From positions 2,484 through 66,483 of the forward strand of contig JBHJHJ010000003.1 of NCBI GenBank assembly GCA_050330955.1: a stretch of DNA of 64,000 nucleotides, read 5' to 3'. Below the pieces are notes generated by a model. That model made no database searches. It was not told where the DNA came from and was given only the letters and a program-made list of their open reading frames with translations. Position numbers and translations under genes: made by a program. This document shows positions 29,693-38,796 of the stretch, piece by piece (the first letter of the stretch is position 1; each line of letters starts with the position of its first letter). The DNA comes from Elainellaceae cyanobacterium. GTDB lineage: Bacteria; Cyanobacteriota; Cyanobacteriia; CAKZMO01.

Positions 29693-29957
29693 TGGCACTG
29701 TCAAGTACGTCTAGCTACAAAATTCTCTGATCCCCGGGCTATAAATCTAAGTTAATTTACAGATTATTGATTTATGCATTATTGAGAGCAATTTTGCAGA
29801 CAGACAGGTTTTACTGCTTCTAGCTGCCGGGCCAGCGGCTGATTACCAGGGTGTACAAGCCATGCAAATAGCTACACCAACACCAGTTCTCAATCTAGAC
29901 AGGGTTTACATTGATGGGTCCGGTCGCTCAACAAACCTAACTTATGAGGAGGCCACG

Positions 29958-32762
29958 ATGTCGCTTAACCGTCGCCAGTTTTTTGTCCTAGGAACAGGGC
30001 TTGGGCTTGGAAGCCTAAGATTTGGTGCTGCCGCCCGTGCCGAAGCCGCAGGTATAAACGCCATACCGCGATCGCTTCAAGATTTCCCCACGCTTCTGGC
30101 CCAGGCCACGGGCGGCACGGTGGTTCCCGGTCGCCATAGCGGCTTCATGGTGCAGAGCGACTACGGCGTAGCCAACAACTTCGAAGTGGTGATCCACAGC
30201 CTCTCCGACGGGCTGGCCCAGCTCTACCGAGACAACGCCCAGCCCGACTTTCCCTGGGTTGGCCCCCTGCCCCCGGAGTACGTGTTCACCTGCGGCCCTG
30301 CGGGGGAGTCGGGGAAAGCCCTGCACGGCAGCTTCTTTGGCGCCGGGGACGCTTCCGACGCATCGCTGATTCAGAGCAACTTCAAGGACTTCGGCGCCAA
30401 GAACGGCCACCTGGAGCTGGTGGTGCGCCACGGCGATCGCCTGGCCCTATACTGGCGGGCCAGCTCCGCCCCCCTGCTGTGGACCGGTCCCCTCTACGTG
30501 CCCTCAGACTCTGTTCACACCGGTAATCCCGCCTTCATTCAAGGCGACTTTGACACCCTCGGTAACTTTGAGCTGGTCACCCCCCACGCGGGGGCAGGCC
30601 TGCTGCACTACGTCCGTTTTAATGACGTGCCGGAAGTGCCCTGGGCTGGGCCTACTGCCTTCGGTCAGGATCTGGGGCCAGTGGATGCGGTGGCGCTGAT
30701 CCAGAGCGACTACGTGGACGCCGGGGAGAGCAACGGCCACCTAGAGGCGATCGCCCGAGTGGGCAGCGATTTGTTCCTGCTGACGCGAGAGTCGAAGCCC
30801 CCCTACGGCTGGACCATTCAGCCCCAGGAAATCACCGCTGCAGTAGGCGGCCTAGCGGTCACGGGCGTACCCGGCTTCATCCAGTCCCAAAATCGCGACT
30901 TCCACGTCGTGATTCCTGTGGTAGGCGGCGGTTTGGCCCATCTGCGACGGCAAAACGGCGTGGACGAGACCTGGGTGCTGCAGAGCACCTTTGACGCGGG
31001 CTTGGATGCGGAGGCGGCATCGCTGCTGCAAAACCAGTTTGGGAACGGCCTAGAGCTGCTGGTCAAGCAGGGCACGTCATCCCAGTTTAAGCACTTCTTT
31101 GCCGGTGCAGAAGACTTGAATTGGCAGGCGGGCGGCGGGTTCGAGGAGACCCAAACCGGCGCAGCCAGCAAAGGGGAATGGACCGTGCCCTACACCCTAG
31201 ACTTTGGCACCGTAGGCATCCATGCCGCCCTGCTCAACACCGGCAAGGTGCTAATGGTGGGCTACGAAGACATCGTGGAAAACGAGAACAGCGCCGTCTC
31301 CATCCTCGACCCCAAAACCGGCCAGCAGGTGAGCGCCCTGCCCGACCCCCAGCGCAATAAGTTCTGCTGCGGCCATGCCTTTTTGCCCGACGGCCGACTG
31401 GTGCTGGCCTCCGGTAACGTGGGGGAAGCCAGCGCTAAGTCCCTACACACCTTCACCCCCAGCGGCGACGGCGGCACCTGGACTGATTTTGGCAGCATGA
31501 GCGGCGGCGTACGGTGGTATCCCACCTGCACTACCCTGCCCGATGGGCGCGTGTTCATCCTGGCGGGAACGGCCCAGGTGTTCACCACGATTCAGCAGTC
31601 CACCTGCTCCCAGGACTTTATCGGGGGCACCGGCATTCCCCGCACCATCAACAAGACCTACGAAATTTTTGATGGCAATCAGCCTGGGGACTCGGTGCCG
31701 GTGCCAGAGCTATTCGAAGACTGCGAAGATAGCTTGGGGCTCTACGGCCTCTACCCCTTCGTATTCGTCATGCCGGACGGGCGGCTAATGATTCACGGCA
31801 ACACTCGCACCTATTTCCTGGACGTCAACACCAACGCCGTCGAGCCGCTGCCCAGCCGCACCAACATCAAAACCTCCCGCACCTACCCGTCTGAAGGGTC
31901 CGCCGTGCTGCTGCCGCTGCTGCCAGAAAAGGACTACCAGGCCCGGTTAATGCTGATTGGCGGCGGGGTCTCCTGCTCCTTTGTGCCCTCCAGCAACCCC
32001 AACTGCGGCCAGGGCACCCCCATCACCCCCGATGGCAACCCCATCCAAACCGCCTGCTTCGACAAGCGAGACGACTGGCCCACCACCAACACTTGCGAGG
32101 TGCTGGACCTGAATGCCCCACAGCAGGGCTGGAGCTTCACCGCGCCGATGAAAAACGGTCGAGTGATGCCCGATGCAGTGCTGCTGCCCGACGGTACCGT
32201 GTTTGTCTGCAGCGGCAGCAGCACGGGCACCGCCGACGTGGCCCGCACGCCGGTACTCGAAGCCGAGATCTACGACCCCGACCAGAACCAGTGGACAACC
32301 GTGGCCTCTATGCACGTCCCTCGGCTCTACCACGCGGCGGCAATTTTACTGCCTAGCGGCGAGGTGATGACCTCGGGCACCGACAAGTTCTATAACATTG
32401 AGCCGTTTGACCACGCAGAGAACCGGGTGGAGGTGTTCAAGCCCCCTTACCTATTCAAAGGAGCACGTCCGGCGATCGCCGCTGTCACAAGCCAAGTGTC
32501 CTACGGCGACCTGTTCAGCGTCAGCACCCCCGACGCCGGGTCGGTGAAGTCGGCCTGTTTCATCGCGCCGGGGGCCAGCACCCACTCGTTTAATATGCAG
32601 CAGCGGCTGGTGGGGCTAGAGATCAGCAACCAAGGCAGCGGCGAGCTGCTGCTGAAGGCACCGCCCGACGGCAACATTGCGCCTCCGGGGTTCTACATGC
32701 TGTTTTTGGTGAATCAGCAGGGCGTACCGTCGGAGGCGAAGTTTGTGAAGCTGACCTCATAG
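29958..32762 (+). CDS. Tat-exported copper radical oxidase (galactose/glyoxal oxidase family) with an N-terminal 6-repeat lectin-like domain and a C-terminal DUF1929/E-set domain
   Basis: Twin-arginine signal MSLNRRQFFVLGTGLGLGSL..AAARA, with GAGGAGG SD 8 nt upstream of the ATG at 29958. Six ~50-aa repeats (..LIQS.F..G..ELVV..G..L.HY.R..). Kelch-like blades (LPDGRLVLASG, LPDGRVFILAGT, LPDGTVFVCSGS). The catalytic Tyr-His sits in RLYHAAAILLPSGEV, and there is a Cys in KFCCGHAF. C-terminus APPGFYMLFLVNQQGVPSEAKFVKL. Confidence 0.75.
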   Translation: MSLNRRQFFVLGTGLGLGSLRFGAAARAEAAGINAIPRSLQDFPTLLAQATGGTVVPGRHSGFMVQSDYGVANNFEVVIHSLSDGLAQLYRDNAQPDFPWVGPLPPEYVFTCGPAGESGKALHGSFFGAGDASDASLIQSNFKDFGAKNGHLELVVRHGDRLALYWRASSAPLLWTGPLYVPSDSVHTGNPAFIQGDFDTLGNFELVTPHAGAGLLHYVRFNDVPEVPWAGPTAFGQDLGPVDAVALIQSDYVDAGESNGHLEAIARVGSDLFLLTRESKPPYGWTIQPQEITAAVGGLAVTGVPGFIQSQNRDFHVVIPVVGGGLAHLRRQNGVDETWVLQSTFDAGLDAEAASLLQNQFGNGLELLVKQGTSSQFKHFFAGAEDLNWQAGGGFEETQTGAASKGEWTVPYTLDFGTVGIHAALLNTGKVLMVGYEDIVENENSAVSILDPKTGQQVSALPDPQRNKFCCGHAFLPDGRLVLASGNVGEASAKSLHTFTPSGDGGTWTDFGSMSGGVRWYPTCTTLPDGRVFILAGTAQVFTTIQQSTCSQDFIGGTGIPRTINKTYEIFDGNQPGDSVPVPELFEDCEDSLGLYGLYPFVFVMPDGRLMIHGNTRTYFLDVNTNAVEPLPSRTNIKTSRTYPSEGSAVLLPLLPEKDYQARLMLIGGGVSCSFVPSSNPNCGQGTPITPDGNPIQTACFDKRDDWPTTNTCEVLDLNAPQQGWSFTAPMKNGRVMPDAVLLPDGTVFVCSGSSTGTADVARTPVLEAEIYDPDQNQWTTVASMHVPRLYHAAAILLPSGEVMTSGTDKFYNIEPFDHAENRVEVFKPPYLFKGARPAIAAVTSQVSYGDLFSVSTPDAGSVKSACFIAPGASTHSFNMQQRLVGLEISNQGSGELLLKAPPDGNIAPPGFYMLFLVNQQGVPSEAKFVKLTS

Positions 32763-32828
32763 GTTAAGCAAATAAAGAGGAGCGCTCCTTAGAAGGCGCT
32801 CCTCTTTGCGTGGGTTTTGACCACATAC

Positions 32829-34070
32829 TTAGTGATGGTGGTGGCCGTGGTCATGGCTGTGGTGGCTATGGCCGTGGCTATGCCCATGAGCACCATCGTG
32901 GCTGTGGCTGTGGCTGCCGTGCTGCTGCGCTTGATGCACCGCCAGCGCCCGATTCACCGACATCGACTGCTCAGAGAGCAGATCCTCGATGTGGCGATCG
33001 GCCCAGTCTGCCGCCATGCGCATGAACTCGGGGTGGTCGTTGGCGCAGTCCATCTGTACGTAGGTCACATGGGGGTGCTTCTTGCGCAGCCCTTCGATGA
33101 TGTGCTCCACGTCCAGCAGGGTCTCGTGGTTTTCGGTGGCAAAGCCGATGGGCATAAACACCAGCGACGTTGCGCCCAGGTCAATCAGGTTACGGGCCGC
33201 CAGATCCGCATTGGGCTGGGTCCACTTAATCATCGGGGTCTGGTGGTTGAGCCAGCCCACCGACACCAGCGGGTACTTGTAGATCAGCTGTTCCCGCACG
33301 CTCTCGTACAGCGCCTGGCTCTCGTCGATGCCGGAGGTGAAGCCCTTGGCCTCGTGGGGACAGCCGTGGTTCATCAGGACGATGCCGGTCTGAGACGGGA
33401 GATGGGCCACCGCCAAGTCGCGGTGGATCTTCTCCTCCACCATACGGGCCATCAGCGAGATGTAGGCAGGCTCGTTATAGAAGGAGGGAATGTAGCGGGT
33501 GCCTTTGAGCCAGTGCTCAGGGCCATCGGCTAGGTCGGACAGGGCGCTATTGACCTGCTCTACGGCGATGCCGCTGGTGAAGATGGAGTCCACCACCAGT
33601 AGGGGATAGATCAACAGCTTGTCAAAGCCCTGGTCGCGAATGGTCTCTAGCACCTGGTGGGGCAGGTGGGGAGCGCAAAAGTTGAACGCCTTAAAGACAG
33701 AGACGCGATCGCCCCAGCGCTGCTTTAGCTCTTGCTCAATGCCGGCCCGCTGGCGCTCAAAAATGGCGTTGTGAGGGGAAATAAAGTTGCCGTGCTGGTG
33801 GCTCCACTCGTGCAGATCAAACATCGCCAGCAGCTTAGCTAGGGGCGGATAGATCCAGGTGGGAACCGGGGCAAATTTGGCCGTCAGCAGATTGAGGGCC
33901 TGTTCGTTGTAGTTCGCAAAGTCTTCGTAGCTTTCGACTTCGCCGTAGCCCATCAGCAAAACCGCAACGCGGTCTTGGGTGTTGGAATCAGAAGCTACAG
34001 ATTGGGGAGACTCGGGAGAAACAACCACGCGGTAGAACCTCTTGGCAAATTGTCTTTCGTAGTCTATCAT
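32829..34070 (-). CDS. Class II chelatase-fold protein (CbiX/CbiK/HemH superfamily) with a poly-His C-terminal tail
   Basis: Two alpha/beta half-domains (VAVLLMGYGEVESYEDF.. and TGIVLMNHGCPHE..). The 40-residue tail is about 50% His (HGSHSHSHDGAHGHSHGHSHHSHDHGHHHH), reminiscent of CbiX-long metal-storage tails. Confidence 0.45.
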   Translation of the reverse strand: MIDYERQFAKRFYRVVVSPESPQSVASDSNTQDRVAVLLMGYGEVESYEDFANYNEQALNLLTAKFAPVPTWIYPPLAKLLAMFDLHEWSHQHGNFISPHNAIFERQRAGIEQELKQRWGDRVSVFKAFNFCAPHLPHQVLETIRDQGFDKLLIYPLLVVDSIFTSGIAVEQVNSALSDLADGPEHWLKGTRYIPSFYNEPAYISLMARMVEEKIHRDLAVAHLPSQTGIVLMNHGCPHEAKGFTSGIDESQALYESVREQLIYKYPLVSVGWLNHQTPMIKWTQPNADLAARNLIDLGATSLVFMPIGFATENHETLLDVEHIIEGLRKKHPHVTYVQMDCANDHPEFMRMAADWADRHIEDLLSEQSMSVNRALAVHQAQQHGSHSHSHDGAHGHSHGHSHHSHDHGHHHH

Positions 34071-38172: not shown

Positions 38173-38796
38173 CTAAAATTCAATGCCGGGCTGCGCTTTT
38201 ACGCCCTGCTCCCGAAACGGGTGCTTCACCAGGGTCATTTCTGTTACTAGGTCAGCCTGCTCGATCAATTCTGGTGGAGCGCCGCGCCCCGTCAAAATCA
38301 CGTGGGAGTCTTCGGGCTTTTGCGCCAGGCCATCAGTCACCTGCGCCACCGAAAGGTAGCCCAGCTTCAGGGCAATGTTGACCTCATCCAGCAGAGTCAG
38401 CTTGACCTCGGGGTTGACAATAAAGCTTAAGGCTTTTCCCCAAGCGGCTTCCGCCTTGGCGATGTCGCGATCGCGGTCCTGAGTTTCCCAGGTGAACCCT
38501 TCCCCCAGGGCATGAAACTCAAGCTGGTCTTCCCACTGGCTGAGGACGGCTTTTTCTGCGGGCTCCCACGCCCCTTTGATGAACTGCACGATGGCGACCC
38601 GGTAGCCGTGCCCCAGCGATCGCACCACCATGCCCAGGGCGGCGGTGGTTTTGCCTTTGCCGTTTCCGGTGTGAACAATAATTAGCCCTTTCTCGCGGTT
38701 GCGCTCGGCCACGCGCTGCTCCTGCACTGCCTTGCGGCGCTGCATTTTGCGGCGGTATTGTTCTTGGTTGAGGTCGCTGGTGGTGGGTTCGGGCAT
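38173..38796 (-). CDS. cobO: Cob(I)yrinic acid a,c-diamide (corrinoid) adenosyltransferase
   Basis: P-loop HTGNGKGKTTAALG, then QFIKG, then LLDEVN, then the HVILTGRGAP pattern of BtuR/CobA/CobO. Confidence 0.85.
   Translation of the reverse strand: MPEPTTSDLNQEQYRRKMQRRKAVQEQRVAERNREKGLIIVHTGNGKGKTTAALGMVVRSLGHGYRVAIVQFIKGAWEPAEKAVLSQWEDQLEFHALGEGFTWETQDRDRDIAKAEAAWGKALSFIVNPEVKLTLLDEVNIALKLGYLSVAQVTDGLAQKPEDSHVILTGRGAPPELIEQADLVTEMTLVKHPFREQGVKAQPGIEF

Follow-up and report, generated by a model that had tools for sequence, protein, structure and literature searches.

A 64,000-nucleotide stretch of DNA from Elainellaceae cyanobacterium (GTDB lineage Bacteria; Cyanobacteriota; Cyanobacteriia; CAKZMO01; assembly GCA_050330955.1, contig JBHJHJ010000003.1, positions 2,484 to 66,483 of the forward strand), hereafter referred to as the window, contains a gene for a copper radical oxidase (CRO) fused to an N-terminal propeller of six repeats. 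The complete gene occupies positions 29958..32762 of the plus strand, including a TAG stop codon, and encodes 934 amino acids. Neither part of this protein is new in kind, and databases already list it, with 100% identity to the window protein, under the generic name 'galactose oxidase-like domain-containing protein [Elainellaceae cyanobacterium]' (P0085, 934 aa). The listed open reading frame is longer (29862..32762, plus strand) and offers an upstream ATG at 29862. This candidate was ruled out because a Shine-Dalgarno-like GAGGAGG (29946..29952, plus strand), read directly from the sequence, lies 5 nt 5' of the ATG at 29958 and because the N-termini of the cyanobacterial orthologues are all found at the equivalent M-x-x-N-R-R position, indicating that 29958 is likely to be the true start.

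The C-terminal part of the protein comprises a catalytic kelch-type propeller (residues 403-836; 31164..32465, plus strand) and a GO-like E-set domain, formerly DUF1929 (residues 837-934; 32466..32759, plus strand). The Pfam models Glyoxal_oxid_N (PF07250; E 2.7e-24, 86 bits versus a cutoff of 37.5), Kelch_6 (E 6e-11, 42 bits versus 25.3) and GO-like_E_set (PF09118; E 6.2e-26, 91 bits versus 25, residues 837-931) all scored above their cutoffs, in agreement with the kelch blades and DUF1929-type tail that had been read from the sequence in an initial annotation of this DNA. The best match among PDB sequences was GlxA of Streptomyces (4unm; E 8.6e-45), with alcohol and galactose oxidases of fungi next in rank. 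A Foldseek search with the full-length model likewise returned CROs at E ~1e-30, with a domain-only match to CgrAlcOx (5c86) at a TMt of 0.84. In the alignment to 4unm, the motifs FCCGH, RWYPT, RLYH and ASTH were paired with FCTGH, RWYPT, RNYH and ASTH, respectively. Residue correspondences were read off the printed alignment by counting, with GlxA numbered as published. Cys470 (31365..31367), the predicted thioether partner of Tyr521 in a Tyr-Cys cofactor, aligned with GlxA Cys121; Trp520-Tyr521 (31515..31520), i.e. the predicted equatorial copper ligand and radical tyrosine with its preceding tryptophan, aligned with Trp288-Tyr289; Tyr791-His792 (32328..32333), the putative axial tyrosine and a copper-ligand histidine, aligned with Tyr501-His502; and His876 (32583..32585), a second putative copper-ligand histidine located in the E-set domain, aligned with His589 (all on the plus strand). 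Cys470, Trp520, Tyr521, Tyr791, His792 and His876 were invariant in 59 full-length homologues with 34-85% identity.

The initial annotation had proposed a copper radical oxidase from the Y-H of RLYHAAAILLP and the Cys of KFCCGH, which are Tyr791-His792 and Cys470, and had named a failure of the active-site Tyr, His and Cys to align as the point on which this proposal could fall; in the hidden Markov model (HMM) alignment these residues did align with GlxA. The call of a copper radical oxidase is correct because of the Pfam and PDB matches, the aligned and invariant catalytic residues and the Foldseek matches to CROs. The RWY motif and the match to Glyoxal_oxid_N place the enzyme with the GlxA/glyoxal-oxidase type and not with the galactose-oxidase type. 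Formation of a Tyr-Cys cofactor by Cys470 and Tyr521 is predicted. An assignment as a GlxA orthologue was excluded, as the NCBIfam equivalog model NF052501 gave a partial match of 220.5 bits versus a cutoff of 800 (E 3.5e-65).

Preceding the oxidase are six repeats of ~52 residues spanning residues 57-402. These were delimited by repeat alignment, a blade HMM and the strands of AlphaFold2 (AF2) models as blade 1 (type A; residues 57-112; 30126..30293), blade 2 (type B; 133-188; 30354..30521), blade 3 (type A; 189-242; 30522..30683), blade 4 (type B; 243-302; 30684..30863), blade 5 (type A; 303-350; 30864..31007) and a divergent blade 6 (type B; 351-402; 31008..31163), all on the plus strand. 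Pairwise local alignments of repeats were scored against shuffles and gave z-scores of 13.4 (repeats 1 and 3), 19.8 (2 and 4), 9.6 (3 and 5) and 7.6 (1 and 2), while an iterated single-blade HMM detected exactly six units (residues 60-105, 134-187, 189-241, 243-298, 303-351 and 352-401). The six-fold repeat noticed in the initial annotation is real and far above chance, with an extent of residues ~57-402 in place of the 'first ~450 aa' given there. Two blade subtypes alternate, A in blades 1, 3 and 5 and B in blades 2, 4 and 6, producing a 3x(A+B) pattern that is also present in the family consensus. The consensus blade of 51 residues is GAVSLIQSNFGTPGNLEVVAPRAGGGLAHYWRDNDPPFPWSGPTVFGSGLL. A recurring motif, Q-S-x-F-G / G-N-x-E / W-R-D-N / P-W-x-G-P, is strongly conserved between blades; its Gln/Glu/Arg/Trp set is intact in blades 1-4 and altered in blades 5 (Glu to His) and 6 (Arg to Ala).

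Blades 1 and 2 are separated by an insertion at residues 105-123 (30270..30326, plus strand) that is missing in >70% of the homologues of ~800 residues. It was modelled with a predicted local distance difference test (pLDDT) score of <50 in the isolated domain and as a β-hairpin (strands 107-113 and 116-122) with a pLDDT of 69-80 in the full-length protein. The insertion is one of three specific to the cyanobacterial orthologues (residues 105-123, 552-559 and 674-699). Two cysteines of the window protein, Cys113 and Cys683, lie inside these insertions and two others, Cys673 and Cys700, flank the third. The insertions could be periplasmic, disulfide-stabilised loops.

An AF2 model of the isolated N-terminal domain, generated from an alignment of 40 sequences, consisted of six four-stranded blades (pLDDT 85.9; predicted template modelling score, pTM, 0.86). 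When this model was compared to the PDB with Foldseek, ranks 1-31 were all propeller lectins (i.e. PLL, PLL2-5, PHL, AFL/FleA, AOL, AAL and RSL) with a probability of 1.00 and template modelling (TM) scores of 0.5-0.78, in line with the earlier description of a propeller/lectin-like domain. The best of these were PLL and PHL of Photorhabdus (E 1.8e-9 to 3e-8, probability 1.00, TM 0.5-0.65), with AFL/FleA, AOL, AAL and RSL as a second tier (E 2e-7 to 3e-5, TMt up to 0.78). The PLL family (PLL, PLL2-5 and PHL; PF26607/DUF346 repeats) shares with the domain the top fold matches and four-stranded W-motif blades with one conserved Trp each; these lectins differ in being stand-alone and seven-bladed (PMC6943638), as compared to six blades and a usual fusion to enzymes here, and sequence identity is 13-16%. 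The AAL family (AAL, AFL/FleA and AOL, with the RSL and BambL trimers) resembles the domain in having six blades, a similar size and a per-blade Arg + Glu/Gln + Trp set, which serves fucose binding in AAL and AFL (PMC3858362), but shows no relation at the sequence level (10-14% identity). Six blades and fold similarity to the AAL family (PF07938) were present with no Pfam match on residues 1-400 at E<=1. The 3x(A+B) pattern resembles the trimer-of-two-blades logic of RSL, but within one chain. Searches of Pfam and NCBIfam retrieved no family for the domain at E<=1-10, only chance-level matches such as a delta-60 repeat (E 0.002) that scored well under the cutoff of its model. Precomputed Pfam lists assign PF26607 (Beta-prop_PLL) to eight orthologues (P0095, P0096, P0127, P0132, P0135, P0138, P0147 and P0154) and to stand-alone relatives. 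The initial annotation left the domain without a lectin family; it can be placed in a distinct, strictly six-bladed, uncharacterised family on the fringe of PF26607, a model that the precomputed lists give for orthologues and not for the window protein itself.

Enzymes first appeared further down the Foldseek list, where ranks 32-49 included the glycoside hydrolase BT3686, a PL25 ulvan lyase, a putative neuraminidase and NanB (E 1e-5 to 2e-4). A catalytic propeller (e.g. a six-bladed glycosidase, lyase or sialidase-like domain), which would make the protein a bifunctional enzyme, is highly improbable: these matches were at TM scores of 0.36-0.48, below those of the lectins, and no sequence match to any enzyme family was found for the domain in Pfam, NCBIfam or the PDB. 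In addition, the conserved residues occur in every blade, with no single asymmetric active site, and the domain is attached to enzymes as an accessory module.

The propeller family was represented by ~900 cluster representatives (50% identity; E<=1e-3) among 1.84 billion proteins. The single-blade HMM counted six blades in 234 of 300 family members; the remainder look truncated, except for one with 18. This latter protein (P0222; 1025 aa) carries its 18 blade units arranged as three family propellers of six blades each, in tandem. Stand-alone proteins of ~306-340 residues consist of the propeller only, and elsewhere it is fused at either end to DUF4185, astacin, matrixin, M14, subtilase, papain, kumamolisin, reprolysin, GH18, GH46, Amidase_2, tyrosinase, multicopper oxidase, patatin, thiol-activated cytolysin, LamG or Ser/Thr kinase domains. 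The tyrosinase, multicopper oxidase, patatin and cytolysin fusions were seen among representatives P0203-P0286 and the kinase fusion in P0159. The propeller-cytolysin fusion is reminiscent of lectinolysin, in which a cytolysin is combined with a lectin domain that binds fucose. A metagenome fragment (P0042) has the reverse order, with a GO-like E-set, i.e. the CRO end, followed by a six-bladed propeller, which argues that the association of CRO and propeller arose in both orientations. As the propeller occurs alone and fused on either side to many different enzymes, it behaves as an autonomous targeting or binding module, as had been suggested by analogy with the accessory domain of fungal galactose oxidase. 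The inter-blade sites of AFL and AAL use conserved Arg, Glu/Gln and Trp/Tyr residues (PMC3858362) and those of the PLL family use Trp (PMC6943638). Conservation of Gln, Glu, Arg and Trp in each blade parallels these propeller-lectin sites, a parallel and not a proof.

The N-terminus of the window protein, MSLNRRQFFVLGTGLGLGSLRFGAAARAEA, was identified by inspection as a candidate twin-arginine translocation (Tat)-type signal peptide (residues 1-30; 29958..30047, plus strand), with NRRQFF as an S/T-R-R-x-F-L-type motif, a hydrophobic region (VLGTGLGLGSL) and an A-x-A site within AARAEA. The motif was kept as NRR[ED]F[LF] in 17 cyanobacterial orthologues. Export through the Tat pathway is predicted from these features, with cleavage expected at the A-x-A site; the earlier proposal of Tat export is in line with a visible and conserved motif that no Tat-signal HMM scored.

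The same architecture was found in two groups of proteins. In filamentous cyanobacteria (Elainellaceae, a Leptolyngbya metagenome-assembled genome (MAG) and Egbenema bharatensis) the orthologues are of ~935 residues with 58-85% identity, and all of them have the Tat-type motif. Proteins of ~800 residues with 35-48% identity occur in Chloroflexota, Dehalococcoidia, Longimicrobium, Acidimicrobiales and Solirubrobacterales (Actinomycetota included) and begin directly at blade 1 with no signal peptide (~40 homologues; P0104-P0146); at one such locus (L003, 6001-8427) an in-frame stop codon lies 10 codons upstream of the start. Sec-like signals were present in P0150 and P0152-P0154. Three localisations are thus predicted for one architecture; a CRO that produces H2O2 in the cytoplasm would be out of the ordinary. 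A genome-collection scan by full-length alignment returned, among the matches listed, mostly CRO-only relatives and three loci of the same architecture (Chloroflexota and Solirubrobacterales). The cyanobacterial orthologues were not among these matches, so that the scan does not amount to a clean taxonomic census. The CRO-only relatives, at least hundreds among the matches listed, were from Acidobacteriota, Planctomycetota, Verrucomicrobiota, Myxococcota and archaea. The archaeal examples include relatives of the catalytic part only (L014 and L080; 31-33% identity) in MAGs of Halobacteriales and Nitrosopumilus.

The reading that we favour, with a probability of about 0.55, is that the protein is a Tat-exported CRO of a filamentous cyanobacterium that oxidises an alcohol or aldehyde and is held on a polymeric substrate by a multivalent, probably glycan-binding propeller. 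In this mechanism, the Tat pathway would export the folded enzyme to the periplasm or lumen. Copper would be bound by Tyr521 (the radical carrier, with its thioether to Cys470), Tyr791, His792 and His876, and the CRO module would perform a two-electron oxidation of a primary alcohol or hydrated aldehyde with reduction of O2 to H2O2. The propeller would act as a multivalent binder of a ligand, probably a glycan, through up to approximately four intact inter-blade sites formed by the Gln/Glu/Arg/Trp motif, and would anchor the oxidase to a polymer of the envelope, sheath or exopolysaccharide that serves as its substrate, a task that in fungal CROs falls to CBM32, WSC and PAN modules (PMC11611005). 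Gene structure, repeats, fold, catalytic residues and family distribution are shown by the analysis; Tat export, cofactor formation, rigid packing, ligand binding and the kind of substrate are inferred.

Several observations weigh against this proposal. The TM scores to lectins are modest (0.55-0.65) and of a size usual between any two propellers, PLL lectins have seven blades and not the six of this family, and the order of Arg and Glu along the blade, which as judged from the motifs places them on different strands, differs from that in AAL and RSL. A family HMM of the N-terminal domain found no relative among all PDB sequences, its sole match being a spurious SH3-adapter at E 0.59, and phmmer searches of the PDB with a well-conserved relative (P0033) gave no matches; from these searches there is no sequence bridge to a solved lectin. 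PF26607 was not among the precomputed matches of P0085, which is the window protein. With respect to export, the Tat-signal HMMs (TIGR01409 and PF10518) gave no match to the window protein at E<=1 to 10, these being short and insensitive models. Furthermore, the ~40 homologues of the same architecture that start at blade 1, and many other members of the propeller family, have no signal peptide of any kind, a family-wide census that was made with a crude hydrophobicity heuristic and is not to be over-read. This is unexpected for a module that targets extracellular glycans, although lectins of the PLL, RSL and LecB types likewise are not known to have signal peptides. The absence of signal peptides from many homologues cautions against presuming an extracellular glycan as the target across the family.

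The packing of the two parts can be read both for and against this proposal. The full-length AF2 model of 934 residues had a pLDDT of 88.4 and a pTM of 0.88 with no low-confidence linker at residues 396-407. As a floppy two-domain protein of such a size could not attain this pTM, the model suggests a fixed interface, with the propeller packed rigidly and linker-less against the oxidase. A part played in shaping the active site would account for such packing equally well. The propeller may then be no lectin but a structural or regulatory cap (i.e. one that forms a substrate channel, gates the copper site, or mediates oligomerisation or protein docking) with no independent carbohydrate binding, an alternative that we regard as unlikely but worth keeping in view. 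It draws on the predicted linker-less interface, on a domain order that is constant across three or more phyla, on the lack of a signal peptide in many homologues, by which an extracellular glycan is not a universal target, and on the loss of motif residues in blades 5 and 6. A CRO-specific cap, however, would not be expected as a protein on its own (306-340 aa) or fused on either side to >15 unrelated enzyme families. Fungal galactose oxidase packs its CBM32, a genuine carbohydrate-binding module (CBM), rigidly on the catalytic domain (PMC11611005), and rigid packing is compatible with binding because this CBM32 binds carbohydrate nonetheless.

The comparison with fungal CROs of family AA5 (e.g. 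Fusarium galactose oxidase with CBM32; Colletotrichum and Pyricularia enzymes with WSC or PAN_1) extends to the catalytic fold, the catalytic residues and the presence of an N-terminal binding module. The window protein differs in that its accessory module is a six-bladed propeller of ~350 residues and not a jelly-roll CBM32 or a small WSC or PAN domain, and in that its tyrosine follows a tryptophan (RWY, as in glyoxal oxidase and GlxA), which is not the galactose oxidase context; identity is ~20%. A review of these enzymes names only CBM32, WSC and PAN_1 as CRO accessory modules (PMC11611005), and the literature searched gave no description of a CRO joined to a lectin-like β-propeller.

Genes adjacent to the oxidase gene encode ParA, a MOSC-domain protein, a ferrochelatase-like protein and a HAD protein. 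The upstream MOSC-domain gene ends 265 nt before the oxidase start. Downstream, a terminator scan detected a 14-bp GC-rich hairpin followed by a T-run (32773..32808) between this gene and the ferrochelatase-like gene that converges on it; this is a probable bidirectional terminator. Terminator-like sites in the region were in total no more numerous than in shuffles, but the stem at 32773-32808 was the longest by far. The upstream gap of 265 nt and the downstream hairpin, together with the lack of conserved neighbours, suggest that the oxidase gene is monocistronic. Horizontal transfer was considered from its G+C content of 0.63, which falls at the top of the thirty-two 2-kb bins of the window but barely above other bins (0.61-0.62). 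The convergent gene (32829-34070, minus strand) encodes a ferrochelatase-family protein (PF00762, E 6e-37; weak CbiX match) with a His-rich C-terminal tail of 30 residues, HGSHSHSHDGAHGHSHGHSHHSHDHGHHHH, and may specify a chelatase for a metal such as Co or Ni rather than housekeeping HemH. Positions 38173-38796 (minus strand) contain a gene for a cob(I)alamin adenosyltransferase.

The gene neighbourhood also bears on how far the protein can be equated with GlxA, its closest solved relative. GlxA of Streptomyces acts with CslA on apical glucan (PMC11022532). A functional equivalent in the window would partner a cellulose-synthase-like glycan synthase in the deposition or modification of a particular envelope glucan, as in Streptomyces. 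Both proteins are bacterial and share the kelch propeller with E-set, the Cys/Trp-Tyr/Tyr-His/His set and the RWYPT and FC.GH motifs (GlxA of S. lividans/coelicolor; 4unm, NF052501). Such an equivalence is nevertheless very unlikely, given the score of 220 bits versus the cutoff of 800 and an identity of ~30%. GlxA has neither a PLL-like N-terminal six-bladed propeller nor a comparable Tat RR signal and is encoded beside cslA, whereas no cslA-like or glycosyltransferase gene adjoins the oxidase gene in the window or its relatives at five related loci (L001-L005). No conserved gene neighbourhood was shared among these five loci and the window, and the idea of a GlxA/CslA-type operon was dropped because the five loci have no neighbours in common.

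A stronger version of the favoured reading, in which the propeller is a new and widespread bacterial CBM family, apart from PLL and AAL, that presents sheath or exopolysaccharide (EPS) glycans (e.g. EPS rich in fucose, rhamnose or O-methyl sugars) to a CRO joined rigidly to it that cross-links or remodels the envelope, is offered tentatively and is rather less than an even prospect. If true, a polymeric substrate would for the first time be defined for a bacterial CRO, and a new CBM family would be established. The enzyme of the window might serve as a biocatalyst for polysaccharide oxidation. Should the propeller prove to be a structural cap and nothing more, the result amounts to an ordinary refinement of annotation. 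CROs are common in bacterial genomes; to our knowledge, the solved structures among them comprise only GlxA and one Arthrobacter-type galactose oxidase. A ligand-recognising accessory domain is the best available handle on a natural CRO substrate. If the propeller is a lectin, it would represent a new carbohydrate-binding module on which many peptidases, glycosidases and oxidases, as well as a cytolysin, draw, and its ligand would point to what this oxidase family acts on.

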